A stretch of DNA of 64,000 nt from contig JBMFIG010000003.1 of assembly GCA_049976425.1 (NCBI GenBank), forward strand, positions 31,188 through 95,187, read 5' to 3'. Source of the DNA: Thermoproteus sp. (lineage in GTDB: Archaea; Thermoproteota; Thermoprotei; Thermoproteales; Thermoproteaceae). Every line of letters starts with the position of its first letter. The stretch's first letter is position 1. The notes under the pieces were generated by a model that was not told the origin of the DNA, made no database searches, and saw only the letters and a program-made list of their open reading frames with translations. Position numbers and translations under genes: made by a program. Shown here piece by piece: positions 8,857 through 59,639 of this stretch.

Positions 8857-8917
8857 TTGACGATAAATCATTTCATCAGAAGACGAAAGAAATAAATAGT
8901 GGAGCAGTCCTACCCCT

Positions 8918-9579: not shown

Positions 9580-10289
9580 AGCTCCACCGAGGCGCATGGG
9601 TAGGGCAGGTAGACGTAGACGCCGGGGGGCACCAGAGGCGTGTTGAGGTAGTAGTGGACGGGGAGGAGGGCCTTGACGCCCGCCCTTCTGGCTATCTCCA
9701 CTGCGTCGCTCGTTGTGCTGTGGCCCACGGCGTGGGCCGGCTCCTCCTGTCCCGGGTTGCCCGAGATCTCGTGTATCAAGAGGTCGCACCCCCTCGCCAG
9801 CTCGACAAGCTCGTCGCTCGGCGCTGTGTCCCCGCTATAGGCGACGCATCTCCCCCCGTGCTCCACCCTCACGTGTACGGCCTCCACCGAGTGCCTGGCC
9901 GCGGCGAGCGCGATCCTCGTATCGCCCTCTCTGGCCTCGCCGCCCGGCGGCACCTCGACCGGCTCCATATATTGTTGCAGATGGGGCATGTTCACGGCCT
10001 CCAGTATTCTCACGAGCGACGACATCACGGAGTCTGTGGCGACGACCTTGATCCTAGTCCCCCTCTGGCGGGCCATCAAGAGGAGGGTAGGCGCGCCCAG
10101 TATGTGGTCCCCGTGGGCGTGCGTGAGGACCAACACATCCGGGAACGGGAGGCCGCATTGGGCCAGCCTGGCGTAGGTCCCCTCGCCTGCGTCCAGGAGA
10201 ATCCGCCTATCGGTCTCGACGTATATGGCCGGGTAGCCCAGCCAGGGGCTGGATATCCAGCCCCCCAGCCCCAGGACCACTACCTTCAT
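9576..10289 (-). CDS. RNase Z/AtsA-like MBL-fold hydrolase
   Basis: LLDAGEG, THAHGDH, YSGDT.P, LIHE, HST motifs; short, no obvious tRNA-binding exosite. Confidence 0.8.
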   Translation of the reverse strand: MKVVVLGLGGWISSPWLGYPAIYVETDRRILLDAGEGTYARLAQCGLPFPDVLVLTHAHGDHILGAPTLLLMARQRGTRIKVVATDSVMSSLVRILEAVNMPHLQQYMEPVEVPPGGEAREGDTRIALAAARHSVEAVHVRVEHGGRCVAYSGDTAPSDELVELARGCDLLIHEISGNPGQEEPAHAVGHSTTSDAVEIARRAGVKALLPVHYYLNTPLVPPGVYVYLPYPCASVEL

Positions 10290-17097: not shown

Positions 17098-17552
17098 GGC
17101 GCGATGTCCGGGGTGATATACCAGACGAGCCTCCAGCCGGCCTCGCCTCTCTCGAGCCTAACGACGCCCGAATACCTGAACCTTATCACCTCCTTCTGGG
17201 GATCGCCCACCAGGAGGAGCGACGCCAGCCGCGAGAGGTGGGGCAGATGGCCGACGAGGAGGACGTCGGACGTCAAGGCCTCGGCCCGAGAGGCCCAGAT
17301 CCGCGGGTCGTCGTTGGGGGCCAGCCCGTCGACCTCCTTGAGAGGGGCGCCGAGGTGGCGCGCGAATATCTCGGCGGTCTGCCTCGCCCTCGTCTTCCCG
17401 CTGTGGAGCACCTCGGCGACCTTGACGCCGGCCGCGGCCAACAGTCTGGCGACCTTCTCGGTCTCGGCGGCCCCCTCCGGCGTAAGCCTCCTCTCGGGAT
17501 CCTCGGCCTCGCTGAAGGACTTGCCGTGTTGCGCAAGATACAGCGCCGGCAT
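17094..17552 (-). CDS. sixA: SixA-like phosphohistidine phosphatase
   Basis: QHG, R.LT.EG, HS...RA.QTAE and LVGH.PHL motifs. Confidence 0.85.
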   Translation of the reverse strand: MPALYLAQHGKSFSEAEDPERRLTPEGAAETEKVARLLAAAGVKVAEVLHSGKTRARQTAEIFARHLGAPLKEVDGLAPNDDPRIWASRAEALTSDVLLVGHLPHLSRLASLLLVGDPQKEVIRFRYSGVVRLERGEAGWRLVWYITPDIAP

Positions 17553-17644
17553 GGGGAGGTCAGTCCACGGACTTAAAAAGCCTAACGACCCACTGCGCAC
17601 GACCAATGAGCGAAATATTTAAATTTAGAAATATGACATTTATT

Positions 17645-45840: not shown

Positions 45841-46055
45841 GATCTCTATTGCGGCGTTGCTCCAGATGCGGCGCTTATACGCTGAGGAGGGACGTCTGCC
45901 CCAAATGCGGAGGGCCTCTGGAGGTGCCCCACCCGCCCAAATACAGCCCCGAGGACAAGTACCAGGTCTATAGGATAAAGATGAAGGTCATGGCCGGGAG
46001 GATGTCGGTTCGGGAAGAGACGCGCCTCAAGATCTTATCTTCGCGGTATACATAG
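45837..46055 (+). CDS. nop10: H/ACA RNP protein Nop10
   Basis: C..CG.YTL...CP.CG......HPPKYSPEDKY..YR. Confidence 0.93.
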   Translation: MRSLLRRCSRCGAYTLRRDVCPKCGGPLEVPHPPKYSPEDKYQVYRIKMKVMAGRMSVREETRLKILSSRYT

Positions 46056-46069
46056 CATCTGGCCTTTAT

Positions 46070-46195
46070 CTATAACAGACCCAGTATCTCGCCCTCTTCA
46101 CGTCGAGGTCGACGCCCCTCAGCGCCTTGACTTCGAGGCCCAGATCCGGCATCCAATAGATGACTTTCAAAACCCTCGATCTCCAATAGGGCCAC
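46070..46195 (-). pseudogene. 5' fragment of an OppD/DppD-type ABC ATPase
   Basis: With two frameshifts reads MALLEIEG|LKVIYWMPDLGLEVKALRGVDLDVK|EGEILGLL*, stopping just before Walker A. Confidence 0.65.
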
Positions 46196-46245
46196 GTCCC
46201 TCCAGCGAGACTGATATTAATTTGCTTTGCTCTACGAAGGCCGCC

Positions 46246-46928
46246 GGGCTTGTGGCGAAAGTGGCTCGGGCAAGACGACAATGGGCAGAGTCGTGCTGGG
46301 CCTCCAGAAGCCCACGTCGGGCCAGGCCCTATATAGGGGGCGGGATATCTATAAGCTGAGGGGCAGGGACTACGCCGAGTTCCGCCGCGCCGTGCAGTGG
46401 GTCCCGCAGGACCCCTACTCGAGCCTAGACCCCAGTTTAACCGTGAGGGAGGCGTTGGCGGCCCCCCTCAGGCGCTGGGGCTCAGACGACGTCGAGGGCG
46501 CGGCCGAGAGGCTGTTGGATCTCGTGGGGCTTAAGCCGCCCCGCCTATTCCTCGACAAGTACCCGCACCAGCTGTCGGGAGGCCAGAGGCAGAGAGTCGC
46601 CATAGCTAGGGCCCTCGCCACCGGGCCGAAGTTGCTGGTGGCCGACGAGCCGGTCACCATGATAGACGCCTCGCTCAGGATAAGCATACTCGACGTCCTG
46701 GCCGAGCTGAAGAGGAAGCTCGGCATGGCGTTGCTCTTCATAACCCACGACTTGGCCATAGCGAGGTACCTCGCCTATAAGGCCGGAGGCGGGAAGGCAG
46801 TGGTTATGCACGGCGGCGTGATAGTCGAGGAGGGCGATATAGAGTCCGTAGTAAAGAGCCCCAAGTCGGCCTACACGAAGCAGCTGGTCGAGTCGGTGCC
46901 CGATGTTAGGAGGCCGTTAAAGCTCTAG
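46246..46928 (+). pseudogene. 5'-truncated OppF/DppF-type ABC ATPase
   Basis: Begins at (GLV)GESGSGKTT with no N-terminus or credible start; QDPYSSLDP, YPHQLSGGQRQR, ADEP and ITHD motifs; no permease or SBP partners nearby. Confidence 0.75.
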
Positions 46929-47335
46929 GTCCACGTAATATATCCTGGGCCCCTTCCCGAAGCCCTCGAAGAGTATGGCGGCGCCGCTCCAGTCTATAAA
47001 GCCCATGCCGGCGCTTCTGAACTTGACGGGGCTCTCCACGCGGAACTCGCCGCCGTCGTTGTAGGCCACGACGAGCCTCCCCGCCGCTATCCTTATATAC
47101 GGAGCCGTCGGGGCCTCGACGGACTGCCCCTTCCACTTCACGCGGCGTCCGTCCCAGTAGGCCGCCGAGAGGTCGTCGGCCAGTACAGGCGCCGCGCTCC
47201 CGTCGAAGTCCTCCGCCACAGTGGACACGTACTCCGGCCTCATGGACGGCGTCCTCTGGCAGAGATCCGGCGACGGCTTAAACCTAACCCTCTCGAGGTA
47301 CAAGAGCCCCTTCCTCTCCACGTCGTAGGCCAACG
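46917..47335 (-). pseudogene. C-terminal fragment of an unknown protein
   Basis: Coding-like open frame (SLAYDVERKGLLYLE...YYVDLEL*) without its own start, joined out of frame to the truncated SDR. Confidence 0.55.
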
Positions 47336-47602
47336 ATTCCGCGAGGCGTTGTTTATCAAGACGTGGATCACGCCGATCTCCTCCTCGAACCACTTGATGA
47401 AGGCCAGGACCTCGTCCCTCTTGGCCAAGTTAACTCTTCTGAAGATTATGCCGCGGGATTTCAACTCCTCGCCCTTGGCCTCGTCCAGCCCGACCCCCAC
47501 CACCCTGGCCCCCAGCTCCGCGAACAGCTTGGCGGCGGCCTCCCCTATGCCGTGAGTCGCCCCCGTTATCAGCACCGTCTTCCCGTCTAGTCTAACCTCC
47601 AT
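47336..47602 (-). pseudogene. 3'-truncated short-chain dehydrogenase/reductase
   Basis: GKTVLITGATHGIG Rossmann motif through VLINNAS, then similarity ends; catalytic YxxxK is absent. Confidence 0.8.
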
Positions 47603-49032
47603 GCTATCACCTTCAGCTCAGTCATGGCGAGCATGGTGTGGTAGACGCCCTCGCGGCCCACAGCGCTGCGCTTGAAGCCGCCGAAGGGCAAGGCGTCCCA
47701 CCTAAGCCTCGTCGTGTCGTTCACCATTATGGTGCCGGCCTTTATCCTAGACGCGAGCTTGTAGGCCCGCGCGAAGTCCTTCGTGAATATCGCCGCGTCG
47801 AGGCCGTAGTCGGTGGAGTTGGCGACCTCAACCGCCTCCTCGTCGTCCTCGACCACCACGACCGGGAAGACCGGGCCGAAGACCTCCTCCCTCAGAGCCC
47901 TGGCGCCGGAGCGCGCGTCGAGCCTTATCACAGTGGGCGGGAAGTAGAAGCCCCTCTCCGGGGCCTTCAGCTGGACCAATATCTGCCCGCCTCTCGCCAC
48001 CGCGTCTTCGAGGAAGGCCTTCATGGACCTCACGGCGTCTTGGGAGATCAACGGCCCTATGTCGGTCCCCTCGTCGAGAGGATCGCCGACTTTCAGACGG
48101 CGGACCTCCTCCGTTAAGACCTCGGCGAATTTCTGGGCCACCTCCTTTCTGACTATCAGCCTCTTGGTGGCGTTGCAGAACTGGCCGGAGTAGTCGAAGC
48201 GGCCGTACACTGCGGCTTTGGCGGCCTTGGCCAAATCGGCGTCCTCCAGAACTATCATGGCGTCGCTTCCGCCCAGCTCCATGATGAGCCGTTTGCCTCT
48301 CGATATGGCTCTAGGCGCTATCACGCCGAGGCCTGTCCTGTCGGAGCCGGTGAAGGTGATCAGCGCTATCTTGTCGTTTGTGACGAACTCGTCGCCTATC
48401 TTGGCCGGGTCGCCGGTCACCACGTTTATGCTGCCGGGCGGGAAGCCCGCCTCCAGCAGTATGCCCGCCATCTTTATCTGCGTCAGCGGGGCGTTGGGCG
48501 CAGGCTTGTGCACTACCGTGTTCCCCACGGCGAGGGCCGGCGCCACCTTGTGGGCGAAGCTGGCCGCCGGGAAGTTGAACGGAGTTATCGAGGCGACGAC
48601 GCCCACAGGCTCCCTCTTAACTATGGCGATCCTGTTCTCGTTGCCCGCCGGCCATTCGTACATCTCCAGAGGGACGAACTCGCCCGTCAGGGCCCGCCTG
48701 ACCTCGGAAGCCGCCAGCTCGAAGATCTGGGCCGCCCTCTCGACCTCGAGCCTCGCGCTCTTTATGGGTCTGCCTATCTCCAGCGCCATGGTCCTCGCGA
48801 GGTCCTCAAGCCTCTGCCTTATGAGCTCCGCGGCCTTCAAGAGGAGCCTGGCCCTCTTGGCTATGGTGAGGGCTTGTATAGTCTTCAAGGCCTCGTAGGC
48901 CGAGTCTATCGCAGACCTGACGTCGTCTACGGAGAGATTCGGCACGTAGTCCACGGGCTCCCCGGTGGCGGGGTTGATCACGGGGGTCTTCTCGTCTCTG
49001 TCGATCCAGTTGGCCCCTATGGGTACCTTCAT
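47587..49032 (-). CDS. NAD(P)-dependent aldehyde dehydrogenase (candidate sulfolactaldehyde dehydrogenase)
   Basis: ITPFNFP, KPA, FTGS, MELGGSD, GQFC (catalytic Cys), EEVFGP and PFGGFK.S; substrate inferred from context only. Confidence 0.9.
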   Translation of the reverse strand: MKVPIGANWIDRDEKTPVINPATGEPVDYVPNLSVDDVRSAIDSAYEALKTIQALTIAKRARLLLKAAELIRQRLEDLARTMALEIGRPIKSARLEVERAAQIFELAASEVRRALTGEFVPLEMYEWPAGNENRIAIVKREPVGVVASITPFNFPAASFAHKVAPALAVGNTVVHKPAPNAPLTQIKMAGILLEAGFPPGSINVVTGDPAKIGDEFVTNDKIALITFTGSDRTGLGVIAPRAISRGKRLIMELGGSDAMIVLEDADLAKAAKAAVYGRFDYSGQFCNATKRLIVRKEVAQKFAEVLTEEVRRLKVGDPLDEGTDIGPLISQDAVRSMKAFLEDAVARGGQILVQLKAPERGFYFPPTVIRLDARSGARALREEVFGPVFPVVVVEDDEEAVEVANSTDYGLDAAIFTKDFARAYKLASRIKAGTIMVNDTTRLRWDALPFGGFKRSAVGREGVYHTMLAMTELKVIAWRLD

Positions 49033-49138
49033 GGCATCTACCGCGGCGCGGTATTTTAAACTATTCTCTATATATTTTATGTAATTGTATATCGTGGAAA
49101 GCAGAAGAAGTTATATAAAGATAGGGAAAAGCCGGCGT

Positions 49139-49438
49139 ATGTCTTTTAAGTTCGCCATACACCACAAGGCCGACAACGTGGGCGTGGCCGTCGAGGACAT
49201 AAAGGCCGGCGAGCTGGCGGCCGGCGTCTACATAGAGGATAGGTCCCCCGGCCCCTCGGTCAAGGCGCTTGAGGACATACCGCTCGGCCACAAGATAGCG
49301 TTGAGGGACATAGAGGAGGGCGAGGTTGTCGTGAAGTACGGCAGGCCTATAGGTAAGGCCACTAGGAAAATAAGGGCGGGGGAGCACGTCCACGTACACA
49401 ACCTGGTGAGCATAAGGTGGAATTTCGGGAGGCGATGA
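49139..49438 (+). CDS. suyA: SAF-domain small subunit, (R)-sulfolactate sulfo-lyase alpha-like
   Basis: H...DNVGVAV.DI..G, DIP.GHKIAL, KYG..IG, GEHVH.HN..S.RW; coupled to suyB. Confidence 0.8.
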   Translation: MSFKFAIHHKADNVGVAVEDIKAGELAAGVYIEDRSPGPSVKALEDIPLGHKIALRDIEEGEVVVKYGRPIGKATRKIRAGEHVHVHNLVSIRWNFGRR

Positions 49439-50592
49439 GGAGCTTCAAGGGCTACATAAGGGAGGACGGGCGCGTCGGCGTGAGGAACCACGTCGTTGCC
49501 ATACCGGTGGACGATTTGAGCAACACGGCGGTCCTCGGCATAGCAAAGCTCGTCCGAGGCGTCGTCCCCATACCCCACCCCTACGGCAGGCTCCAGTTCG
49601 GCCGCGATCTACAGCTCCTCTTCCACATACTGGTCGGCACCGGCTCGAACCCCAACGTCGCCGCGGCCATAGTCGTGGGCATAGACGAGTCTTGGTCCAA
49701 CAAGGTGGCCGACATGATAGCGAGGACCGGCAAGCCCGTCGAGGCCATATCCATAGAGGGGCGCGGAGATCTGAAGGCCATAGAGGCGGCGTCCCGCAAG
49801 GCCGTCAAGCTGGTCCAAGAGGCGAGCGAGAGGCAGAGGACCGAGGTCGACGTCTCGGCCTTGACCGCCTCGATAAAATGCGGAGAGTCCGACACGACCT
49901 CCGGCCTTGCGTCGAACCCCGCCTTGGGCGCCGCCGTGGATAGGCTTATCGACATGGGGGCGACGGTGATGTTCGGCGAGACCTCGGAGCTGACAGGCGC
50001 CGAGGATATAGTCGCGTCGCGGATACCCGACCCGGCTCTGCGCGAGAAGTTCTACAAGATCTACAGGGAGTACGTCTCGGTGATAGAAGCGGAGGGCGCC
50101 GAGATGCTGGGCTCCCAACCGACCGAGGGCAATATAAAGGGAGGGATCTCGACCATAGAGGAGAAGGCGCTGGGAAACATACAGAAGCTGGGGACCAAGC
50201 CCATAACCTGCGTCCTCGACTACCTCGACCCGTTGCCGCCCGGCAAGGGAAGGCTCTGCTTCGTCAACACTTCGTCGGCCGCGGCCGAGTTCATAACGCT
50301 CGTCGCCGCCAAGGGGTCGGTCCTCCACTTCTTCACGACGGGCCAGGGGAACGTCGTGGGCCACCCCATAGTGCCCGTCATAAAGATCACGGCAAATCCC
50401 AAGACCGCCGCGGCGATGTCGGAGCACATAGACGTGGATGTCTCCGACCTCCTACGTCTCAAGATCAGCGTCGCGGAGGCCGGCGAGAGGATACTGGAGT
50501 ACGCGTTCAGGGTGATGAACGGCAGACTGACGGCGGCGGAGGTGCTACAACACGACGAGTTCTCCCCGATAAAGCTCTACATCAGCGCGTAA
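49435..50592 (+). CDS. suyB: UxaA-family large subunit, (R)-sulfolactate sulfo-lyase beta-like
   Basis: GRVGVRNHV..PVDD.SN, PHPYGRLQFG.DL, KCGESDTT.GL, SQPT.GN..GG..TIEEKA.GN, TGQGNVVG.PIVPVIK, KLY.SA C-terminus, which I recall as SuyB-clade rather than altronate/galactarate dehydratase features. Confidence 0.82.
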   Translation: MRSFKGYIREDGRVGVRNHVVAIPVDDLSNTAVLGIAKLVRGVVPIPHPYGRLQFGRDLQLLFHILVGTGSNPNVAAAIVVGIDESWSNKVADMIARTGKPVEAISIEGRGDLKAIEAASRKAVKLVQEASERQRTEVDVSALTASIKCGESDTTSGLASNPALGAAVDRLIDMGATVMFGETSELTGAEDIVASRIPDPALREKFYKIYREYVSVIEAEGAEMLGSQPTEGNIKGGISTIEEKALGNIQKLGTKPITCVLDYLDPLPPGKGRLCFVNTSSAAAEFITLVAAKGSVLHFFTTGQGNVVGHPIVPVIKITANPKTAAAMSEHIDVDVSDLLRLKISVAEAGERILEYAFRVMNGRLTAAEVLQHDEFSPIKLYISA

Positions 50593-51225
50593 CGGCGGCG
50601 AAGTTGTCCCTCAAGAACCTCAACACGTTGGTCTCGTGGAGCTCCATGTAGTACTCGGCGTCGCTCTGGTTCCTCGACGCTATGGCCTCGAAGACCGCCC
50701 TGTGCTCCTCCACCTCTTGGCGCCTCCTCGACGTGTCGAGGAAGACCTGTAGCCGGGCAGGCGTGAGCCTCATCCTTATGTTGGCGAGCCCGTCGCGGAG
50801 GAACTTGTTGCTGGCCCCCTCAGATATGATCTCGTGGAAGGCGCCGCCGAGCGTCATCAGCCTAAGCGGGTCCGGAGAGGCGCCTCTACTGCTCTCGACG
50901 GACATGGCCGAGACTATCTCCTTGAGCTTGTCGAGGACGTGCGAGGGAGCGCGGAGGGCGGCGAGCTTCGCCGAGGTCATCTCGAGGGTATCCTGACCTC
51001 GTACATCTCCAGCACCTCCTCCTTGCTGAGGAGGGCCACGGCGTACGACCTCCCCCTCTTCACTACGAAGCCGTCCCTCTCAAGGCGGGCGAGGGCCTCC
51101 CTTATGGGAGTCCTGCTCATGCCGAGCCAGGCGGAGAGGTGCTCCTCCTTCAACAACCGGCCGGGCGGTAGTCTGCCGTCGAGGATTGCTTCGAGTATAA
51201 GCCTATATGCCTTTTCGTGCAACAT
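50582..51225 (-). pseudogene. GntR/FadR-family regulator split by a 1-nt frameshift
   Basis: wHTH (LPPG..L.E..L...LG.SRTPIREAL..L...G) in 50977-51225 and FCD domain (FH..I...S.N, EH..., H) in 50582-50980; one extra C at the CCC run (50986-50988) restores YEVRIPLEMTSA. Confidence 0.85.
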
Positions 51226-51277
51226 GGCGAATTTAAAAGAGCAACTGGCTTAAAAAGTTTTTTCTAGATTGAAGTAC

Positions 51278-52402
51278 ATGAAAATAACGAGGATTGAGGG
51301 AATTCCGCTGTCGGTGCCGTTGGTGCCGACGGAGCCGAGGCAGATTTGGGCCGATGCCTGGAGCAGACAGGTGTTGGTGAAGGTATGCGCCGACTCCGGC
51401 ATATGCGGCGTCGGGGAGATATTCATGAACACGTCCAGCTACGGCCCCTACCTATCCCTCATCGAGGAGCTGGGGCGCCACGTGTCCGGGCTCCCCGCAG
51501 ATCCCAACGCCGTTGTCGACGTGCTCGAGAGGAGGACCTACTCGATAGGGAGAGGAGGCATCGTGGCGTCGGTCGTAGGGGGCATAGAGGTGGCCGTGTA
51601 CGACCTTGTGGCCAAAAGCCTCGGCGTCCCGTTGCACCGCCTCCTCGGCGGGAAGCGGAGGGATTGGGCCAAGGCCTACGCGAGCTTGGCCCGCTACAAG
51701 ACGTGCGGCGACGCGGAGAAGGTGGTCGAGTACGCCTTGGGCAGAGGCTTCAAGGCCGTGAAGTTGCACCAACACGGAGACGAGGTGGTGGAGTGCGTTG
51801 CCAAGATTAGGGGCGATCTGGGCTACGGCTTCGAGCTGATGGTGGACCTAAACACCACCCTCGGCAGGAGGTCGGCCCTCGGCGTCTTGAAGAGGCTGGA
51901 GAGGTACGAGCTGGCGTGGGTGGAGGAGCCCATATGGCCGCCCGAGGACTACAAGTCCCTCGGCCGTCTGGCGAGGCGGGTCGAGATACCGATAGCGGCG
52001 GGCGAGAACGAGTACACGCTTAGGGGATTCGCCGATCTGGTGGAGGTGGGCGGCGTCTCGGTGCTCCAGCCGGATGCGGCCAAGGTAGGGGGGCTGGGGA
52101 AGATGGTCAAGATAGAGGGGCTGGCCGAGGCGTTGGGGGCGATCGTGGCGCCGCACTCGCGGCCGCACTCGCTCTGGGCCAACATACTCGTCGCCGTGCA
52201 CTTCGTGTCGACGCTCCCCTACGAGTCCGTGGTCGAGATACCGCCGACTCCGCCCGTCCAGGAGCCGCTCGTAGCGGCTGTCGAGTTCAAGGACGGGGCC
52301 ATCAAGGTCCCCGACGTCCCGGGCATAGGGGTTAAGGACGACGGCTGGTTCGGCCTCTACCCGCCCAAGGAAGGCGAGGCCCTGGACTACCACTCGCGGT
52401 AG
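51278..52402 (+). CDS. mandelate racemase/muconate lactonizing (enolase superfamily) enzyme
   Basis: G.GE, A.YD...K..G.PL..LLGG, KAVKLH, D.N, EEP, GENE, QPD....GG, APH, PD.PG.G. Confidence 0.9.
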   Translation: MKITRIEGIPLSVPLVPTEPRQIWADAWSRQVLVKVCADSGICGVGEIFMNTSSYGPYLSLIEELGRHVSGLPADPNAVVDVLERRTYSIGRGGIVASVVGGIEVAVYDLVAKSLGVPLHRLLGGKRRDWAKAYASLARYKTCGDAEKVVEYALGRGFKAVKLHQHGDEVVECVAKIRGDLGYGFELMVDLNTTLGRRSALGVLKRLERYELAWVEEPIWPPEDYKSLGRLARRVEIPIAAGENEYTLRGFADLVEVGGVSVLQPDAAKVGGLGKMVKIEGLAEALGAIVAPHSRPHSLWANILVAVHFVSTLPYESVVEIPPTPPVQEPLVAAVEFKDGAIKVPDVPGIGVKDDGWFGLYPPKEGEALDYHSR

Positions 52403-52444
52403 TGTATACAGAGCACCGTTTTAACTCTCATCGCTAGTAGCTCC

Positions 52445-54427
52445 ATGAGGCCTAAGCCGGGCCAGTCGGTGCCCATAGGCGGCATTGGGGCCGGCTACGT
52501 GGCGTTCGACGCCGATTTGACCATAGACAGAATGGCGCTATTCAACGACTGGTCCAGCCCCATGAGGGTCGTCCGCGGGTTCCACCTGGTCCTACTCGGC
52601 GACGAGCCGGTGTTCCTGCAGGGAAATCCCGGCAGAAACGTCGAGACGCCGCCGCGCTACCGGACGGCTGAGATAGTCGACGTCGACGCGGTGTGGCCCA
52701 AGATAAGGTACTCCTTCGAAGGTCCCATAAAGGAGGTCGAGATCTACACGCCGATAGTGCAACGCGACGTGAGGAATTCCTCGTTGCCGTTGATATACTT
52801 CAAGGTGAAGGGGAGAGGCGCCGTGGCCCTCTCGTTCCCCAACGTCACGGGCAGGAGGTACGGGCGGGCTGCGTTCTCCGTACGTAGAGGGCCTCTCTCG
52901 GGCGTCCTCATGACCAACCTAAGGTCGTCGCAGTCCGACCCAGCCCATGGCGAGATATTCATAGGGTGCGTCGGCTGTGGGACCTACGCCGGCTACTCCC
53001 TCTACGTCCCCGCCGAGACGAGGGGGATGACCGAGGACATCTCGATATTCTACAAGCTGAGGGAGGCGGAGGATCCCGGCCACTACTACATAGAGAAGTA
53101 CGCCAGGGAGGAGATGGCCGGCGTCGTGTGGAAGGAGATCGACGGCGAGGATCTCTTCGTCTTGACTTGGTACGCCAGGGGGAGGCCCTACCACTACCCC
53201 TACGGCCACTATTACGAGAACTGGTTCCCCGACGCAATAAGCATCGCCGAGTACGCCCTCGACAAGAGGCTCGAGCCGCGGCTCGACGTCGAGGCCGAGG
53301 GGTGGCTGAGAGACGCCCTTCTCAACAGCCTCTACGTGCTCTCGGCGACGTCCTGGCTCACCAAGGACGGCAGGTTCGCCCTATACGAGTCCCCGTGGAT
53401 AGCTCCGCTCATGAACACCATAGGGTCCATGACGTGGGACGGGGCCGGCTTCGCCTTGCTGGAGCTGTTCCCCGATCTGGTGGTGAGGGCCGACAAGATG
53501 TTCGCGACGTATAGGAGAGGCGGCGAGATACCCCACGACTACGGCGAGGAGAGCATAGAGGATCCCATATACGGCGCGACGTACCTAACCCCGTGGAAGG
53601 ACCTGGCATCGACTTGGGTCTTGATGATCTACCGCGACTACTACTACACAGGCGACGTGGAGATCTTGAGGAGGAACATAGACGCCATGAAGGACGCCGT
53701 GGATTGGCTCATGTCGCTCGACAGAGACGGCGACTGCGTGCCGGACTCGCGGGGGAGGAACGACAACTCCTACGACGGCTCCAACATGTACGGGAGGGTC
53801 GCCTACGTGGCCTCTCTCTTCCTCTGCGCCTTGACCGCCTACATAAAGGCGGCCGAGAGGCTGGGCCTCAAGCCGGAGCCTAAATACCTCGAATGTCTCG
53901 AGAGGGGCAAGCGGTCACTCGACGAGCTGTGGAACGGCAGGTACTACGTGGCCTGGGCCGACGGGCCCAGACGCAAGGACGCCTGCATGAGCTCCCAACT
54001 CCTCGGCCAGTTCTGGTGCGACATGCTGGACCTCCCGCCCATAGCGCCCGACGACAAGGTGGCGGCGGCTTTGAGGTCCATATACGAGCTCGGCATGAGG
54101 GCCTCTAGGTACTGCATACCCAACTCGGTGACCCCCGACGGCAAGCCCGACGAGGAGACGCCCCAGCTCCGCTCTTGCTGGACCAGGGTGAACTTCGCCG
54201 TGGCCGCCCACATGTTGTTGAGAGGCATGGAGAGGGAGGGGATGGAGGTGGCGTCGAGGGAGTGGAGGACGATAGCGGAGCTGGACCCCTGGAACATAAA
54301 CTCCCGTATAGACGCCGTCGAGGGGAAGAACGTGGGGCTCCAGTACTACATAAGTAGCCCCACGGTCTGGCTTGTCTATTTGGCCGAGAGGAAGAGGAGA
54401 GGTCTTTGGCCTCCCAAAAAGCGTTGA
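52445..54427 (+). CDS. GH116 beta-glycosidase
   Basis: VP.GGIGAG, FND, GRFA.YE.P (nucleophile Glu), PHD.G, WKDL, D.DGD..P....DNSYD (acid/base Asp), LWNG.YY, QL.GQ. Confidence 0.88.
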   Translation: MRPKPGQSVPIGGIGAGYVAFDADLTIDRMALFNDWSSPMRVVRGFHLVLLGDEPVFLQGNPGRNVETPPRYRTAEIVDVDAVWPKIRYSFEGPIKEVEIYTPIVQRDVRNSSLPLIYFKVKGRGAVALSFPNVTGRRYGRAAFSVRRGPLSGVLMTNLRSSQSDPAHGEIFIGCVGCGTYAGYSLYVPAETRGMTEDISIFYKLREAEDPGHYYIEKYAREEMAGVVWKEIDGEDLFVLTWYARGRPYHYPYGHYYENWFPDAISIAEYALDKRLEPRLDVEAEGWLRDALLNSLYVLSATSWLTKDGRFALYESPWIAPLMNTIGSMTWDGAGFALLELFPDLVVRADKMFATYRRGGEIPHDYGEESIEDPIYGATYLTPWKDLASTWVLMIYRDYYYTGDVEILRRNIDAMKDAVDWLMSLDRDGDCVPDSRGRNDNSYDGSNMYGRVAYVASLFLCALTAYIKAAERLGLKPEPKYLECLERGKRSLDELWNGRYYVAWADGPRRKDACMSSQLLGQFWCDMLDLPPIAPDDKVAAALRSIYELGMRASRYCIPNSVTPDGKPDEETPQLRSCWTRVNFAVAAHMLLRGMEREGMEVASREWRTIAELDPWNINSRIDAVEGKNVGLQYYISSPTVWLVYLAERKRRGLWPPKKR

Positions 54428-54454
54428 TGTTTTACCGCGCGGAGGGCCGCCTCC

Positions 54455-54568
54455 TTATGCGCGCCCCCAGGATACCAGCAAGTTCCATAGGGTCCTGGCG
54501 GCCCTCTCTCTGCACTTGGCCCGCTCCTTCGCGTCCGGTATGCCTTCGCATATCTCATCGACGAACAT
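54455..54568 (-). other. promoter-linked 37-aa ORF, probably a 5' gene remnant
   Basis: TTTTTATAG about 25 nt upstream of ATG; MFVDEICEGIPDAKERAKCRERAARTLWNLLVSWGRA. Confidence 0.35.
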
Positions 54569-54749
54569 CGATCCGCTTATTGATGCGGCTATAAAAACCT
54601 TTTGCTTAAGCACAAAGGGGATTTTATGTAAATACAAGCTATATTATTTTTGTTTAAAGAGTCTTGATATATAGGGAAATAAGGCTATGCTGATATAATA
54701 GTAAAGCATTGAGAGAGATCAAGTATTGTCGGCTTTACCTCAGCTACAC

Positions 54750-55859
54750 TCACGTTAAACTCCAGAGGAGTTGTCCGCCCACGAGCGACGCGGCGGGCTT
54801 GAAGCCTCTGTCGAACACCGCTATGTCGGCGGCGCATCCCGGCCTTAGACAGCCCAGATCGCCCCTCCCGACGGATCTGGCGGGCGTTATCGTCGCGGCG
54901 GCCAACGCGCGCCTGGGGTCGACGCCCAGGCTTATCAAGTTCCTCACGGCTTGGTCCAACGTGATGACGCTGCCGGCGATCGTGCCGTCTTCGAGAAACG
55001 CCCTCGATCCCTCGACGTGGACCTCGACGCCGCCCAGCCTATATACGCCGTCGCCGAGGCCCGCCGCGGCTATTGAGTCCGTCACCGCCACGGCGCGGTG
55101 TCCCGCCGCCTCGACCACAGCCCGCACGACCTCCGGCGCCAGGTGGACGAAATCCGCTATGAACTCGACGTAGACGTGCTCCGACTCGAGGAGGGCCAGC
55201 GCGGGCCCCGGCTCCCTGTGGTGGAACCCCCTCATGGCGTTGAATATGTGGGTCGCCCTAGAGGCGCCGGCAACCACGGCGGCTTTCGCAGTCTTGTAGT
55301 CCGCGTCGGTGTGGCCCACGCTGGGCACCACGCCGGCTCTCGCCAGTGCCGATACCAGCTCCAGCCCGCTCTCCAGCTCGGGCGCGACGGTCATTATCCT
55401 CAAGACCCCAGTCGATACGTAGGCCTCCGCCTCTCCCAGATCCGGCTTCTTGATATACCTGGCGTCCTGCGCGCCCCGTCTGGCGGGGTTTATGAAGGGC
55501 CCCTCCATATGTGCGCCCAACACCCTCGCGCCGCCTCCAGCGTAGGCCCTCACGGCCGCTAGCGCCCTCTCCAAGACGGGGCGGGGCGCCGTCACCGCCG
55601 TCGGCGTTATGGACGTGACGCCGTATCTCAAATACGCCTTGGCCAGCTCCCCCAGCCTCTCCGGCGAGGAGGTGAAATCCACGCCGCAACATCCGTGGGT
55701 GTGGGTGTCCACGAGGCCGGGCGCCGCTATGTATCCTCTGAAGTCCAGATCGAAGGGGCCGCCCGAGCCGATCCCGACGACGCGCCCGCCCTCGACAGCC
55801 AGCACAGCGTCGTGGAGCTCCTCGTAGGGGGTGTAGAGGACGTCGAATCTGATCCTCAT
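54750..55859 (-). CDS. nagA: N-acetylglucosamine-6-phosphate deacetylase
   Basis: PG.VDTHTHG, HMEGPFIN..RRGA, TVAPE, GHT, THIFNAM, HHR.PG, D..H, VTD, IAGS, TPA. Confidence 0.93.
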   Translation of the reverse strand: MRIRFDVLYTPYEELHDAVLAVEGGRVVGIGSGGPFDLDFRGYIAAPGLVDTHTHGCCGVDFTSSPERLGELAKAYLRYGVTSITPTAVTAPRPVLERALAAVRAYAGGGARVLGAHMEGPFINPARRGAQDARYIKKPDLGEAEAYVSTGVLRIMTVAPELESGLELVSALARAGVVPSVGHTDADYKTAKAAVVAGASRATHIFNAMRGFHHREPGPALALLESEHVYVEFIADFVHLAPEVVRAVVEAAGHRAVAVTDSIAAAGLGDGVYRLGGVEVHVEGSRAFLEDGTIAGSVITLDQAVRNLISLGVDPRRALAAATITPARSVGRGDLGCLRPGCAADIAVFDRGFKPAASLVGGQLLWSLT

Positions 55860-55939
55860 GATGCGCCGCTGCGAGGGAGCTCCCGCTCACGGCGGCCCTC
55901 TCGGGCCTCTCGCGGGGCGAGGGCTGTACTAAACTCCAT
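55856..55939 (-). pseudogene. 27-aa ORF coupled to both neighbours; scar of an internally deleted gene
   Basis: ATG overlaps the mannosidase TGA (TGATG) and its TGA overlaps the nagA ATG (ATGA): MEFSTALAPREAREGRRERELPRSGAS. Confidence 0.5.
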
Positions 55940-58827
55940 CACCTGATTTTAAGTGTTACTATCTCGTAGTTCCTGTAGGAGAAGCGGACGGAGTCGCCGT
56001 CGACGGACAGCTCCCTGGCCACGTCGCCCAGCTCCAACAAGTCCGTGGAGCGGACGGACGACGGCTTGAACCAGAGCCTCAAGACGCCGGTCCCCCTCTT
56101 GTTGTAGGCCTCGTACAGCCTCACGACCACGCCGTCGCCGTCCTCGGCCCTCTTGACGGACTCGAGCACGAGGTTGTCCTGCGGCAGTTCTCCGAAAGAC
56201 CGCGAGCCGCCCTTCCCCGAGACGACGAACGGGCGGTATATGGCGGAGTAGGCCTCCCTCGGGATCGAGGCGGCGCGCCAGTCGCCCACGTGGGGCTCCA
56301 GGACGACGACGGCCTCGTTGTCCTCGGCGTCGGCGAGCGGGTCGGGGAATATGGGCGTGGTGGCCAGGCTTATGCCGACCCTCGCCCCCCTCACGGTCGC
56401 CCCGTGTTTCGAGTCGGAGAACACCGCGACGCCGTAGTCGGCCTCCGATATGTCGAGCCAGTGGAGGAACGGGACCTCGAACCTGGCGACGTCCCAGCTG
56501 GTGTTCGTCGTCGTGGGCCTCTCCACGTTGCCGAAAGGCACCTCGAAGACCGCCTTGTCGGCGTTGAGGTCGAAGTGGAACCAGAGCTTCAACAGCCTCT
56601 CCCTATCGCGTAGCGAGGTCCTCACGACGAGCTCCACGCGCCTCTTGCCGGCGTAGATCCTGACCCTCTCCTCGACGGTCGACTTGAGGAACTTGAAGAC
56701 GAGGCGCAACGACGCCCTGTAGGGCCCCGCCTCGACCACCTCGGCCTTCTCCAAGGCGGCCCTCACGCCGGACTCCTCGAAACGCGGCTCCACGTCCCAG
56801 GCGTCCCAGACTGGGATGTTCTCGTGGGCCACCAACACGTTCCCCTCGCCCCTCAGCACCTCCCTGCCGGCCTCCTTGTCGAATACGGACTTGAACGCCC
56901 CGGTGGCGCCGTCGACGACGATCCTCAGATATTTGTTCTCGAGGACGAAATCCCCGCCGGCCGCGACGGCGGTTGCCCTATCGCCGACGTCGGCTGGCTT
57001 GACCTCGGCGTAGCCGAGAGGCGGTAGCTCGACCGGCGCGAGGCAGCCGTCCTCGGCCTCCTGGCACCCGGCCACCCGCGCCTGGACGTATTCGAGGCGC
57101 CTCCACGGAAGCGAGTTGAACGCAATAGGCGCGCCGCCGGGACCCGCGAGGGCCGCGGCCGCCCTCTCCGCCTGCGATCTGGCCCTCGCTATCACGTCCT
57201 CGAGCTCTGCGTAGACTGTCCTGTAGACGTCGTTGATGGCGCTGCCGGGAAGCACGTCGTGGAACTGGTCCTTCAACACGATCTTCCACAACGGCCCCGC
57301 GTCGAAGTCCAGGCCGGCCACGGCGCTCCAGAGCTCGGCCTCTCTCAGCCAGCGCTCGGCCTCGGCGTGTAGCCGCTTCATCTTGCTGTGCGATGTGTAG
57401 ACCCCGCGGTGGACCTCCACGTACAGCTCGCCGCGCCACCGCGCCTTGGGCTTGGGCTCGTAGGGCCCCTCGAGCTGGACAGACGGCAGTATCGGCATCT
57501 CGTCCACCGCCTCGGCCCTGTAGAGCATCTCCTCCGTGGGCCCCCCTCCGCCGTCCCCCCACCCGAAGGAGTAGAGGATCGGCCCTCCGCCGTTCCAGGA
57601 CCTGGCCTGCTCCAGGACGGACTTGGCGGTGAAGTCCGAGTTGTAGCCGCCTTTGCCGAAGCCGAAGGCCACCGCCGGTATGGCAGTTCCGTCGAGCGCC
57701 TCCCAGAAGAACTCGTTGTAGGGGAACTTGTTGGTGTCGTTCCACGCCACCTTGTGGGTCGCGAAGATCTTGAAGCCCGCCAGCTTGGCTATCTGGGGCA
57801 ATTGCGCCGAGAAGCCGAAGGTGTCGGGGAGCCAGAGTATCTCGGCGAGGCGGCCGAACCTCTGTAGGAAGTACCTCTGGGAGTACAGCATTTGCCTCGC
57901 CAAGGATTCTCCCGTCACTACGTTGGTGTCCGGCTCCACGTAGCCGCCGGCGAGCACCCAGAGGCTCGCCTCGACGGCGTCCTTGATGGGGCCCAACAAG
58001 CCCGCCTCCTCGGCCCATTCGTAGTAGAGCGCGCTGCTCTGCAGGAAGCGGAACCTCCGCCTCGACATCAAGGCGAGGACCGTCGAGAAGGTCCTCTCGA
58101 CCTTCCTCCTCGTCTCGTCGAAGTTCCAAAGCCACGCCGCGTCTATATGGGCGTGCCCGAACGCCGCCAGGACGCCGCTCTTGCCGTAGCGCCTCCTCAA
58201 CTCGGCCAGCCCCTCCCGGAGGGCCTTGAGGGCTCTCCCGAAGTCGGGCCTGGCCTCCCTAAGCCCCGCCGCCTCGGGCGAGAAGCCCTCCGGCAGATAG
58301 TCCAGTAGGTAGGAATACCGCTTGTCGAAGAACAGAGCCACCTCTATCTGGTCGGGCGTCACGCCGAGGAACAGCCCCCTCAAGGCCGAGTCCACGACGT
58401 CGAGTATCTCCTCCGCCTGACTCCCGGGGCCTAGGGCCTCCGCCAGCTCCAACGCGGTGGTCGCGTAGGCCCAGAGCCTGAACCCCTCCTCGTCCCTCTC
58501 GGCGTAGATAGGCGCGCCGGGGCTCGCGCCCACCCTCTGGCCGAAGTCGGCGTACGGCGTCATCCTCAGCTCGACCCTGTGTCTGCCCGGGGGGAGCGGG
58601 ACGTAGAGGTGGGCGTTGTCGAGGCCGAAATACGGCCTGCCGTCGAGCAACACGAGCGCGGAGCCCTTCCTGTCCTTGAAGAAGAGGAGGGCCCCCTCCC
58701 CGGCCTCCACTTGGAGGGACCCGTCGGCCTCCCACCGAAGCCTCTTGATATTCCTAAAGGACGCCGCGAGGGCCAGAAAAGCCCGCCTCCTCAACGGCTC
58801 CAGCCTAGCCTCCCAGCTGTTCGACAT
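55939..58827 (-). CDS. GH38 alpha-mannosidase
   Basis: GHAHID.AWLW, GG.VEPD.N...GESL.RQ, WLPDTFG (nucleophile), FG.GDGGGGPT, GELY.E.HRG.YTS, QFHD.LPGS, K.AED....VRLYE. Confidence 0.95.
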   Translation of the reverse strand: MSNSWEARLEPLRRRAFLALAASFRNIKRLRWEADGSLQVEAGEGALLFFKDRKGSALVLLDGRPYFGLDNAHLYVPLPPGRHRVELRMTPYADFGQRVGASPGAPIYAERDEEGFRLWAYATTALELAEALGPGSQAEEILDVVDSALRGLFLGVTPDQIEVALFFDKRYSYLLDYLPEGFSPEAAGLREARPDFGRALKALREGLAELRRRYGKSGVLAAFGHAHIDAAWLWNFDETRRKVERTFSTVLALMSRRRFRFLQSSALYYEWAEEAGLLGPIKDAVEASLWVLAGGYVEPDTNVVTGESLARQMLYSQRYFLQRFGRLAEILWLPDTFGFSAQLPQIAKLAGFKIFATHKVAWNDTNKFPYNEFFWEALDGTAIPAVAFGFGKGGYNSDFTAKSVLEQARSWNGGGPILYSFGWGDGGGGPTEEMLYRAEAVDEMPILPSVQLEGPYEPKPKARWRGELYVEVHRGVYTSHSKMKRLHAEAERWLREAELWSAVAGLDFDAGPLWKIVLKDQFHDVLPGSAINDVYRTVYAELEDVIARARSQAERAAAALAGPGGAPIAFNSLPWRRLEYVQARVAGCQEAEDGCLAPVELPPLGYAEVKPADVGDRATAVAAGGDFVLENKYLRIVVDGATGAFKSVFDKEAGREVLRGEGNVLVAHENIPVWDAWDVEPRFEESGVRAALEKAEVVEAGPYRASLRLVFKFLKSTVEERVRIYAGKRRVELVVRTSLRDRERLLKLWFHFDLNADKAVFEVPFGNVERPTTTNTSWDVARFEVPFLHWLDISEADYGVAVFSDSKHGATVRGARVGISLATTPIFPDPLADAEDNEAVVVLEPHVGDWRAASIPREAYSAIYRPFVVSGKGGSRSFGELPQDNLVLESVKRAEDGDGVVVRLYEAYNKRGTGVLRLWFKPSSVRSTDLLELGDVARELSVDGDSVRFSYRNYEIVTLKIR

Positions 58828-58873: not shown

Positions 58874-59311
58874 TCAGACCAACACGCAGTCGAGGCCCTC
58901 GGCCCTCGCCGCGTCGCACAGCCTGGCGTCGCCTGTCGCCAACGTCGAGGCGGTCGCCTTCGCCGTGGCTATCTGCAAGGCGTCGGCTATGTAGAGGCCG
59001 TGGCGCTCCACGTAGGGCGTCGAGGCCAACACAGCCGAGACCGTCAGCGGAATTACCTTCATGGAGCCTATCCTCGTAAGCCTCTTGACGTCTCCCAAAA
59101 GCCTGCTCTTGAGCCTCGGGTATAGCTCCGGCGCGCCCGCTCTCCGGACCGCCTTGTGCAGAGCCGACAGAGCCTCCCCTATGTTGAACGCGTTCAGGAC
59201 TAGCGTCGCCTCGCCGCCGTAAGCCGCCACGAAATACCTCCTGACAGCGTCTGAGCCCTCCTCCTTCACGTACCTCTTAACGAGCGCGCTGGTGTCTAGA
59301 CACAGCCTCAT
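58874..59311 (-). CDS. vapC: VapC PIN-domain toxin
   Basis: LDTSALVKRY..E.GS, GE.LS, ADALQIATA and TGD motifs. Confidence 0.9.
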   Translation of the reverse strand: MRLCLDTSALVKRYVKEEGSDAVRRYFVAAYGGEATLVLNAFNIGEALSALHKAVRRAGAPELYPRLKSRLLGDVKRLTRIGSMKVIPLTVSAVLASTPYVERHGLYIADALQIATAKATASTLATGDARLCDAARAEGLDCVLV

Positions 59312-59522
59312 CCCTCATCTCCCGGACCACCTCCGACGCCTTCACCCCAAGATCCACCGGCTCGAAGTCGAGCTCCTCCCCGGCCTCCTGCACCTCGCCG
59401 AAGTACTCCCTCAGTATCCTCTCGAGGAGCTCCGAGGCGTCTAAGCCCTCCCTCACCGCCTCCTCCTTCAGACGGCGCCAGACAGACGCGTCGATATATA
59501 TGCTCGTACGTATCTTCTCCAC
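59277..59522 (-). CDS. vapB: RHH antitoxin
   Basis: RTSIYID..VW..LK..A......SELLE..LR; 'ASEVVREMRD' overlapping vapC. Confidence 0.85.
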   Translation of the reverse strand: MEKIRTSIYIDASVWRRLKEEAVREGLDASELLERILREYFGEVQEAGEELDFEPVDLGVKASEVVREMRDEAVSRHQRAR

Positions 59523-59639
59523 AAAGTAAGAAGATAAGAGCATATATAAGTCTTGATGCGGCACGCGCGGAGGCCTCCGGTCGTACGTATCACCGCCAGC
59601 CGGCGGCCAACTTTTTTATTCCGCGGTAGCGGATCCCCC

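Follow-up and report, generated by a model that had tools for sequence, protein, structure and literature searches.

A partly deleted accessory island of Thermoproteus with a probable role in sulfosugar breakdown

Does a Thermoproteus genome hold the genes for a route from sulfosugars to sulfite, and is that route complete? The question is raised by a stretch of 64,000 nucleotides from Thermoproteus sp. (contig JBMFIG010000003.1 of assembly GCA_049976425.1, positions 31,188 to 95,187; hereafter the window), in which a first-pass annotation, made from the letters alone, had read positions 46066-58827 as a candidate complete island for stripping N-glycans and degrading sulfoquinovose. Our analysis suggests that window 46044-54430 is probably a partly deleted accessory island for the oxidative, non-phosphorylative breakdown of a 6-sulfo-hexose, ending in desulfonation. 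The chemistry is known from bacteria; the archaeal version is new, and we find it credible but crippled in this genome. The window belongs to a 96-contig assembly that is 99.4% complete by marker genes, and its proteins were profiled against Pfam and NCBIfam. As the reference for the intact island we used G117, the complete genome of the closest relative (97% identical) from the same genus, which has the gene order of the window and proteins that are 96-98% identical.

The answer turns on two adjacent genes for a split enzyme of the UxaA type, which had been taken for the subunits of the sulfolactate sulfo-lyase SuyAB and whose grouping, with SuyAB or with the altronate/galactarate dehydratases, had been set beforehand as the test of that idea. 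Both the trees and a cysteine signature group the pair with SuyAB. In particular, in the two SuyB trees (FastTree, 87 rows; IQ-TREE LG+G4, 40 rows) the window protein falls in a SuyB clade with a support of 100 and a stem of about 0.5 substitutions per site, which comprises the anchors from Cupriavidus pinatubonensis and Paracoccus versutus, 55 to 57 further bacterial rows and an archaeal subclade of 13 rows (10 in the smaller tree). UxaA and GarD of E. coli, the enzyme of a fucose cluster, the split forms of Haloferax, Variovorax and E. albertii, and the Thermoproteales paralogs all lie outside this clade. Furthermore, SuyAB is the exception in a superfamily that otherwise conserves four cysteines (Watanabe 2019, PMC6336799). 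At these four sites the window's large subunit has L34, R58, a gap and C155, so that three of the cysteines of the UxaA/GarD sugar-acid dehydratases are absent. Among the 71 rows of the SuyB clade, the Arg and the gap are invariant (71/71 each) and the fourth site is Cys in 70/71, while the remaining replaced site holds Leu in 46/71, with Leu in C. pinatubonensis and Ile in P. versutus; the 16 outgroup rows have Cys at the three columns in 13/16 and at the fourth in 15/16. The large subunit scores 135 bits against TIGR03248, the cut-off of which is 731. The two-subunit form typical of SuyAB is also found, with a SAF protein and a GD_AH protein encoded by adjacent, overlapping genes, and the small subunit is 47% and 43% identical to SuyA of the C. 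pinatubonensis and P. versutus loci, respectively. Judged from these relationships, the split pair belongs to the SuyAB sulfolactate sulfo-lyase clade, as a statement of family membership only.

Relatives of the large subunit with 63-93% identity occur in Thermoproteales, Sulfolobales, Marsarchaeota and Thermoplasmatota. A tblastn search of 72,556 plasmids matched 463 records, and among the 60 matches listed there is a gap in identity, 13 plasmid records lying at 50.9-54.7% and the rest at 42% or less. One of the 13 is a replicon of P. versutus with the order GntR-suyA-suyB-'sulfate exporter family transporter'. This order matches the suyABZ arrangement that a study of P. pantotrophus reportedly names in its title. 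Another is a plasmid of C. pinatubonensis, on which the pair follows hpsN, hpsO, a gene for a major facilitator superfamily (MFS) transporter and a further dehydrogenase gene; according to PMC12890257 this is the cluster for 2,3-dihydroxypropane-1-sulfonate (DHPS) and sulfolactate of the species in which SuyAB was identified. A second clade of split UxaA-type proteins (L014-L023), present in many Thermoproteales and other Thermoprotei, is 38-44% identical to the window SuyB and stands outside the SuyB clade.

All families that had been named for 46066-58827 were recovered with Pfam or NCBIfam profiles, except that the short-chain dehydrogenase/reductase (SDR), the Opp-type ATPase and the GntR regulator turned out to be remnants rather than genes. 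The features are as follows (ORF, open reading frame; ABC, ATP-binding cassette; ALDH, aldehyde dehydrogenase; DHDPS, dihydrodipicolinate synthase; KD(P)G, 2-keto-3-deoxy-(6-phospho)gluconate).

14950-15858, reverse strand: DHDPS-family protein (PF00701, E=6e-55), outside the island; together with a second copy on contig C8, a candidate for a KD(P)G-type aldolase acting in trans
42637-45012: AglB, about 1 kb beyond which the block begins, with eIF2-alpha and a Nop10-like ORF in between
46077-46235: inverted relic of 160 bp, derived from the start of the first Opp-type ATPase gene and the region upstream of it (82% identity, blastn against G117)
46254-46928 (ORF from 46221), forward strand: second Opp/Dpp-type ABC ATPase, truncated (Pfam ABC_tran and oligo_HPY); residues 48-272 of 272, 97% identical to the G117 protein, with the first 47 codons gone and the G117 homology starting at 46254 (blastn)
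46917-47335, reverse strand: C-terminal 139 codons of a 353-aa protein (tblastn: residues 215-353 of the G117 protein, 96%)
47337-47602 (ORF 47240-47602), reverse strand: first 89 codons of the SDR, a candidate sulfosugar 1-dehydrogenase (adh_short profile positions 1-87 only)
47587-49032, reverse strand: ALDH, a candidate sulfolactaldehyde dehydrogenase (Aldedh, E=1e-151)
49139-49438 (ORF from 49085), forward strand: SuyA-type small subunit (SAF, E=2e-10), starting at the ATG that agrees with relatives
49435-50592 (ORF from 49417), forward strand: SuyB-type large subunit (Pfam GD_AH_second and GD_AH_C), its start overlapping the suyA stop by 4 nt
50582-51225, reverse strand: GntR/FadR-type regulator, frameshifted, with the helix-turn-helix part (50977-51225) and the FCD part (50582-50980) in different frames
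51278-52402 (ORF from 51269), forward strand: enolase-superfamily enzyme of the mandelate racemase subgroup (MR_MLE_N and MR_MLE_C)
52445-54427, forward strand: GH116 beta-glycosidase (DUF608/GH116, PF04685, E=4e-75)
54750-55859, reverse strand: NagA-type deacetylase (TIGR00221, 256.8 bits against a cut-off of 225.65)
55939-58827, reverse strand: GH38 alpha-mannosidase (four GH38 Pfam domains)

The remainder of the window consists of housekeeping genes and the one DHDPS-family gene. Two long ORFs at 16387-19837 on the forward strand (411 and 743 aa) stayed without a Pfam assignment at a threshold of E<=1e-6. The 353-aa protein matched no Pfam family; its Atlas structure rows are suggestive of a beta-propeller-like fold, below the bar for naming, and serve as a lead only.

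The comparison with G117 reveals what the window copy has lost. The intact island of G117 encodes an Opp-type ABC transporter, a lactonase, the SDR, the ALDH, SuyAB, the GntR regulator, the enolase-superfamily enzyme and GH116; beyond the ALDH and the 254-aa SDR, the order continues with an SMP-30/SGL lactonase, two permeases, a 705-aa SBP_bac_5 protein and the 353-aa protein, followed by two Opp-type ATPases, Nop10, eIF2-alpha and AglB. In the window, a deletion of 6.26 kb at 47335/47337 (blastn against G117) has removed the rest of the SDR, the SMP-30 lactonase, both permeases, the SBP_bac_5 protein and 214 codons of the 353-aa protein, and its junction joins SDR codon 89, out of frame, to the last 139 codons of the 353-aa gene. 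At the ATPases about 1.2 kb is missing, with 210 bp in its place that include the inverted copy of the first ATPase start. Moreover, the GntR gene is one C short in a C-run, near 50986-50989, with respect to the intact gene of G117. No lactonase, binding protein or orthologous permease was found elsewhere in the 99.4%-complete assembly. The expectation of a complete system was thus not borne out in this copy, which has lost transporter and lactonase, keeps a truncated SDR and carries a frameshift in its regulator gene; it is in G117 that a lactonase and a transporter complete the enzyme set, the predicted pairing of SDR and SMP-30 lactonase typical of the sulfo-Entner-Doudoroff (sulfo-ED) route being absent from the window and present, at the level of families, in G117.

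A 3013-nt contig built by another assembler from a public hot-spring run, possibly the window's own sample, covers window 46111-49125 and crosses both deletion scars, which shows that the deleted form is real in the sequenced hot-spring sample, though not that it is the sole form there. The site of the GntR frameshift lies outside the coverage of the run contigs, and run X2 had next to none of the stretch. The run contig is also 2 bases short at window 49065, in the AT-rich divergent promoter region between the ALDH gene and suyA. As far as their coding sequences tell, the surviving genes show no decay: stop codons are absent and the ratio of nonsynonymous to synonymous substitution (dN/dS) against G117 is 0.07-0.16 (0.08 for the ALDH), with 0.03-0.22 in flanking genes. 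The entry steps are gone here, and at most the ALDH-SuyAB-enolase-GH116 part could still work.

The first-pass annotation had proposed to compare suy neighbourhoods. The survey of SuyB covered 86 loci (80 from species-representative genomes and 6 from relatives), in which ORFs within 7 kb of suyB were called and clustered and the clusters named by Pfam, and distributions were taken over 120 genomes of the class, 62 of the order (14 SuyB-positive and 48 SuyB-negative) and 9 of the genus. In support of a linkage, orthologs of the SDR, the ALDH and the enolase-family enzyme accompany suyAB in Sulfolobales, in Marsarchaeota and in other Thermoproteales. Orthologs of the G117 SDR, at 70% and 56% identity, stand beside suyAB in two Sulfolobales loci, and those of the window ALDH in the suyAB loci of a Metallosphaera (58.5%) and of a metagenome-assembled genome (MAG) of Marsarchaeota (56.6%). 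The ALDH is therefore linked to suyAB in three archaeal lineages and may be regarded as a candidate sulfolactaldehyde dehydrogenase. Searches of the PDB named no substrate, the best match of the ALDH (8hap) carrying no substrate name, the G117 SDR matching one hypothetical protein and the enolase-family gene matching mostly unnamed structural-genomics entries. Taken together, the predicted SDR, lactonase, dehydratase, ALDH and SuyAB are connected pair by pair in four archaeal lineages or more.

The position of the enolase-superfamily gene is best seen against the bacterial loci, in which the slot directly 3' of suyB usually holds 2-Hacid_dh and Ldh_2, or LarA, a neighbourhood that is the published context of sulfolactate metabolism and sulfoglycolysis (PMC12421959). 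Over the 86 loci, Ldh_2 (the ComC family) was near suyB in at least 29, 2-Hacid_dh (the position held by SlcC in Paracoccus wurundjeri) in at least 23, LarA in at least 13, an ALDH in at least 9 and an SDR in at least 8; TctA was found in at least 6, DctP, the PF03601 exporter and an aldehyde:ferredoxin oxidoreductase in at least 5 each, a transaldolase in at least 4 and TauE in at least 2. All of the 13 archaeal suy loci examined have an enolase-superfamily gene (13/13), and none has both members of the ComC/SlcC pair (0/13). In the tree, the enolase gene of this genus and the clade that immediately follows suyB in other archaea are sisters; together they form a group of 12 rows (support 99/98) that is separate from the gluconate-dehydratase-like group. 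Homologs of the window enzyme occur in 14/120 genomes of the class, namely in 13 of the 14 genomes with a SuyB ortholog and in one other, at 33% identity.

Whether this enzyme is the dehydratase of the route or acts on sulfolactate is, in our opinion, a matter of roughly even odds. The former role is favored by the fact that it is the only such gene in the island of this genus, and by one Bacillota locus where an enolase-family gene is found alongside both racemising dehydrogenases. In favor of the latter, most other archaeal loci place the enolase gene in the slot of the bacterial racemising enzymes, genus g9 holds just suyAB, the enolase gene, GntR and an MFS transporter, and Sulfolobales and genus g6 own a separate gluconate-dehydratase-like paralog by the SDR or the ALDH. 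In particular, a paralog 54% identical to the gluconate-dehydratase-like gene on contig C8 of the present genome, which there adjoins a DHDPS-family gene, is found in a Sulfolobaceae MAG immediately upstream of suyAB, with an SDR and a MupG_N-like glycosidase as its neighbours; another member, more remote (35% to the C8 gene), has the same position upstream of suyAB in a Sulfolobales genome, and in g6 a 66% relative of the MAG paralog is accompanied by an ALDH, a lactonase and a DUF2848 gene. In two Sulfolobales loci (L042, about 8550-9600, and L044, 8430-9503), the MupG_N-like gene, of the 6-phospho-N-acetylmuramidase family (PF19200), lies directly upstream of suyA, and this 6-phospho-glycosidase homolog would be a plausible candidate for the cleavage of 6-sulfo-glycosides.

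As for the glycosidases, GH116 follows the enolase-family gene after 42 bp in the same orientation and matches the GH116 beta-glucosidases of the PDB with E=5e-38 over residues 353-603. Its orthologs (at least 54% identity) occur in 11/62 genomes of the order, that is, in 11 of the 14 SuyB-positive and in none of the 48 SuyB-negative genomes, although the bearers fall in three genera only and are hence non-independent. From its place and distribution, the predicted GH116 enzyme belongs with the sulfo module, and the expected synteny of the suy and glycosidase modules was observed in G117, G115, G112 and G110. The inclusion of GH38 and NagA in the island, on the other hand, could not be upheld. 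GH38 is present in 27/62 genomes of the order, including the SuyB-negative G113 and G114, and the complete genome G113 has the order AglB-eIF2-alpha-Nop10-PIN-NagA-GH38-HAD-radical SAM-KaiC-Nre, the sulfo module being wholly absent. Since G113 keeps both flanks and the GH38-NagA genes without the module, the block from the ATPases to GH116, found in 5/9 genomes of the genus, is a discrete accessory unit; GH38 and NagA are older backbone genes outside the mobile unit, which may act on the same glycans. The PIN gene of G113, between Nop10 and NagA, is 53% identical to a VapC-like PIN-domain gene that in the window lies between GH38 and the HAD gene (58874-59311, with a small upstream ORF at 59277-59564, both on the reverse strand, the latter maybe its antitoxin). 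The position of the block about 1 kb from aglB was confirmed, but the link is maybe positional only, because the same aglB-eIF2-alpha-Nop10 flank occurs without the island in G113; a functional meaning of this nearness is unsupported.

A functional tie between GH38 and suyAB is possible. A Thermoprotei MAG encodes GH38 no more than 7 kb from suyB, along with GH5, a GH98-like gene and a sulfatase, and GH38 is equally near to suyB in two Bacillota MAGs. In the latter (L053 and L057), suyAB, accompanied by 2-Hacid_dh and Ldh_2, stands within 7 kb of GH38, a GH78 rhamnosidase, an FGGY kinase and a ROK protein, an arrangement that may be a bacterial counterpart of glycan-linked sulfosugar use. Two further arrangements were noticed among the bacterial loci. 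In 15 of them (e.g., L053:6082-7452), a protein of about 456 aa with a weak match to the L-fucose-isomerase C-terminal domain (E=1e-5) is encoded near suyAB, together with sugar ABC transporters, PfkB or ROK kinases and transaldolase, and is a candidate sulfosugar isomerase; in the Bacillaceae loci L080, L085 and L087, subunits resembling succinate dehydrogenase (Fer2_3, FAD_binding_2 and Sdh_cyt) and a two-part fumarase adjoin suyAB and TauE. Concerning the source of the sugar, the N-glycan of Sulfolobus acidocaldarius is (Glc-beta1-4-sulfoquinovose-beta1-3)(Man)2GlcNAc2, and the sole Thermoproteales N-glycan described, that of Pyrobaculum, is without sulfosugar (PMC8993221); foraging on foreign glycans would therefore fit better than self-recycling. 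A preprint on the S-layers of Pyrobaculum gives no composition of glycans.

It is possible to hypothesize how the intact form, as in G117, would operate. The Opp-type ABC transporter would import a sulfosugar glycoside or oligosaccharide, from which GH116 would free the sugar; the SDR would oxidise this to a lactone that the SMP-30 lactonase would open to a sulfo-aldonate, as their families and conserved linkage suggest. Dehydration to a 2-keto-3-deoxy acid may be due either to the enolase-family enzyme of the island or to the gluconate dehydratase of the genome, after which a KD(P)G-type aldolase from elsewhere in the genome would yield pyruvate and sulfolactaldehyde, the ALDH would convert the latter to sulfolactate, and SuyAB would presumably cleave this to pyruvate and sulfite. 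The sulfite would be exported or detoxified rather than respired through Dsr. Three TauE genes are present, all on other contigs, and the earlier suggestion of a Dsr-type sulfite respiration found no counterpart, TIGR02064 (dsrA) being unmatched and NIR_SIR (PF01077) absent from 5/5 SuyB-positive genomes of the genus; NIR_SIR was present in 17/29 genomes searched in the family. As to the sugar, sulfoquinovose had been named, and the sequences agree with it, but they fit sulfofucose equally well.

Several observations weigh against this proposal. An aldolase had been expected in the locus, but neither the island nor the 7-kb surroundings of suyB in 9 other archaeal loci contained a member of the DHDPS, HpcH or KDPG-aldolase families. 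Any KD(P)G-type aldolase of the route would need to be supplied in trans, and two DHDPS-family genes exist elsewhere in the genome (14950-15858 and on contig C8). D-Sulfosugars yield (S)-sulfolactate and SuyAB takes the (R) form (PMC12421959). Because the genome has no Ldh_2 (ComC-type) gene and the island neither 2-Hacid_dh nor LarA, the (S)-to-(R) step is without a candidate of bacterial type; the usual companions of SuyAB, SlcC/ComC and a sulfite or sulfate exporter, which are not strictly required for its recognition, are not in the locus either. In addition, the identity to bacterial SuyB is 51-55% and membership of the clade is no proof that sulfolactate is the substrate, and the anchor sequences are from the same species or genus as the SuyAB studied, not from the strains assayed. 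The family counts around suyB are lower bounds, the GD_AH gene having been displaced by an antisense ORF in 18/86 loci (greedy ORF picking), and related genomes are non-independent samples. Finally, genus g9 has suyAB with the enolase gene, GntR and the MFS transporter and no close SDR, ALDH or lactonase, a minimal module that may therefore take up sulfolactate itself, and in g6 the ALDH ortholog (62-64%) is part of a separate locus with DUF2848, the gluconate-dehydratase paralog and the lactonase. The g6 locus resembles oxidative clusters of the pentose type. In one g6 genome (G062), it spans L147:7555-12235, its lactonase being of the SGL family, with ROK, SIS and GH42 genes nearby, far from suyAB.

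The situation in g9 and g6 could indicate that only a C3-sulfonate module is real. Sulfolactate, sulfolactaldehyde or DHPS would then be imported and used by SuyAB, the suyB-linked enolase enzyme and possibly the ALDH, next to an unrelated neutral-sugar pathway made up of the SDR, lactonase, ABC transporter and glycosidases. The g6 SDR also sits in another locus, and many bacterial suyAB loci are sulfolactate-only modules with tripartite tricarboxylate or tripartite ATP-independent periplasmic (TRAP) transporters. We nevertheless consider this combination unlikely, given that in G117 and the window the ALDH-SDR-lactonase genes form an overlapping string divergent from suyAB over a 106-bp promoter region, that the ATPase-to-GH116 block comes and goes as a whole, that SDR orthologs directly adjoin suyAB in the two Sulfolobales loci and that, over the 62 genomes of the order, GH116 orthologs are restricted to SuyB-positive genomes. 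A different sugar altogether would be degraded if the UxaA-type pair were a sugar-acid dehydratase and the ALDH a lactaldehyde or 2-oxoglutarate-semialdehyde dehydrogenase, with an ordinary 6-deoxyhexose, pentose or uronate as the substrate of the island. The split architecture is not diagnostic in this respect, because a heteromeric UxaA-type L-fuconate dehydratase exists (PMC6336799), and one split pair of this kind was found in an L-fucose-type cluster on a Bacillus plasmid; the best NCBIfam match of the ALDH, below its cut-off, is lactaldehyde dehydrogenase, and the public names of the large subunit disagree, ranging from 'UxaA family hydrolase', 'D-galactarate dehydratase' and 'altronate dehydratase' to the '(2R)-sulfolactate sulfo-lyase subunit beta' of the Joint Genome Institute. 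Against this stand the place of the large subunit in the SuyB clade and outside the fucose-type and UxaA/GarD rows, the loss of three of the four cysteines that 13/16 non-SuyB rows keep, and the fall in identity from 51-55% to 42% or less for the other split forms among the matches listed, and we hold the neutral-sugar explanation to be very improbable. On the strength of the tree and the signature, the oxidative uronate/aldarate pathway (GarD, GudD and 2-oxoglutarate-semialdehyde dehydrogenase) and the L-rhamnose and L-fucose pathways were likewise rejected as specific candidates.

The damage, too, has another possible explanation, namely that the scars are artefacts of assembly and the organism really has an intact island. 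The genome is in 96 contigs, one of which, C79 (1161 bp), contains the greater part of the first ATPase gene absent from the window and is 97.5% identical to window 46254-46414 where the two overlap, from which it follows that the assembly mixes at least two variants of the locus; moreover, the GntR frameshift falls in a homopolymer beyond the reach of the run contigs. We consider this improbable, however, since both scars are crossed by the contig from another assembler and the lactonase, binding protein and orthologous permease are nowhere in the assembly, even though a run that is possibly from the same sample proves a real variant there and not its presence in every cell. A partly deleted island for a 6-sulfo-hexose remains our preferred reading. 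A bolder extension of it, which we regard as rather doubtful when taken as a whole, is that thermoacidophilic archaea (Thermoproteales, Sulfolobales and Marsarchaeota) own a complete route for the sulfosugars of archaeal N-glycans that includes two enzyme activities new to any family: a beta-sulfoquinovosidase or beta-sulfofucosidase, for which GH116 here and the MupG-like homolog in Sulfolobales would be the candidates, and a sulfolactate racemase or (S)-specific sulfo-lyase in the form of the suyB-linked enolase-superfamily enzyme. If so, hot-spring archaea with the island could use the S-layer glycans of neighbouring cells as food.

Sulfoquinovose is a constituent of the N-glycans of Sulfolobales, and sulfofucose of those of Thermoplasma (PMC8993221, PMC12421959), and according to a review of January 2026 all known pathways of sulfoquinovose degradation are bacterial, none having been characterised in archaea (PMC12890257). 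In the literature searched, with subscription-only papers and supplements outside it, no paper was found that links suyB or sulfolactate with Thermoproteota, Sulfolobales, Vulcanisaeta or Thermoproteus, or that treats sulfoquinovose and sulfoglycolysis together with archaea and hot springs. The island of G117 offers concrete candidate genes for an archaeal route, with a bearing on the recycling of sulfosugar sulfur and carbon in acidic hot springs, and the window copy is a natural loss-of-function variant to compare with it. Together they raise the questions of how beta-linked sulfosugars are cleaved, which aldolase is used, and how the stereochemistry of sulfolactate is dealt with where ComC/SlcC or LarA are lacking.

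Among archaeal systems, Sulfolobus and Thermoproteus have a promiscuous non-phosphorylative Entner-Doudoroff (ED) pathway with an enolase-type gluconate dehydratase and a DHDPS-type KD(P)G aldolase. The ED-type enzymes present here on contig C8, which are housekeeping and outside the island, could serve in trans. The GH38 alpha-mannosidase and the GH116 beta-glycosidases of Saccharolobus solfataricus are said to have been proposed to trim N-glycans. Different from that case, GH116 here runs in the direction of the suy-linked enolase gene and follows SuyB in its distribution, and its substrate may accordingly be a sulfosugar glycoside, although we know of no such activity in GH116.

Among bacterial systems, the closest in outline is the tandem sulfofucolytic ED-SuyAB pathway of P. 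wurundjeri, shown by experiment (mBio 2025; PMC12421959), whose families include SfcH (PF13561), SfcD (PF08450), SfcF (PF13378/PF02746) and a SuyAB module. The archaeal island, in its intact form, shares with it the families of an SDR, an SMP-30/SGL lactonase, an enolase-superfamily enzyme (the dehydratase in P. wurundjeri, a candidate dehydratase here), ABC uptake and SuyAB, the last step of the bacterial pathway, which gives pyruvate and sulfite. However, the HpcH-type aldolase (PF03328), the racemising SlcC/ComC pair and the TauE of P. wurundjeri have no counterpart in the archaeal locus, which adds a candidate sulfolactaldehyde ALDH where the bacterium lacks a classical one; the transporter is Opp-type and not sugar-type, GH116 is present, and the enolase gene falls in a separate, suyB-linked archaeal clade. 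With the sulfo-ED pathway of Pseudomonas putida SQ1 the proposed route has in common the logic of dehydrogenase, lactonase, dehydratase, aldolase and sulfolactaldehyde dehydrogenase (PMC12421959, PMC12890257), whereas the dehydratase of SQ1 is of the IlvD/EDD type (PF00920) and its sulfolactate is excreted, the island having an enolase-type candidate and a predicted cleavage of sulfolactate in the same organism. Finally, the desulfonation step resembles the SuyAB modules of C. pinatubonensis, P. pantotrophus and Chromohalobacter salexigens in its SAF and GD_AH subunits, overlapping genes, clade and cysteine signature, and a GntR gene stands beside the archaeal suyAB as in the Paracoccus locus. 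It differs from the bacterial modules in its level of identity to them (51-55%), in having no ComC/SlcC or exporter in the locus, and in the slot behind suyB, which in other archaeal loci is taken by the enolase-family gene and in bacteria by 2-Hacid_dh/Ldh_2 or LarA.

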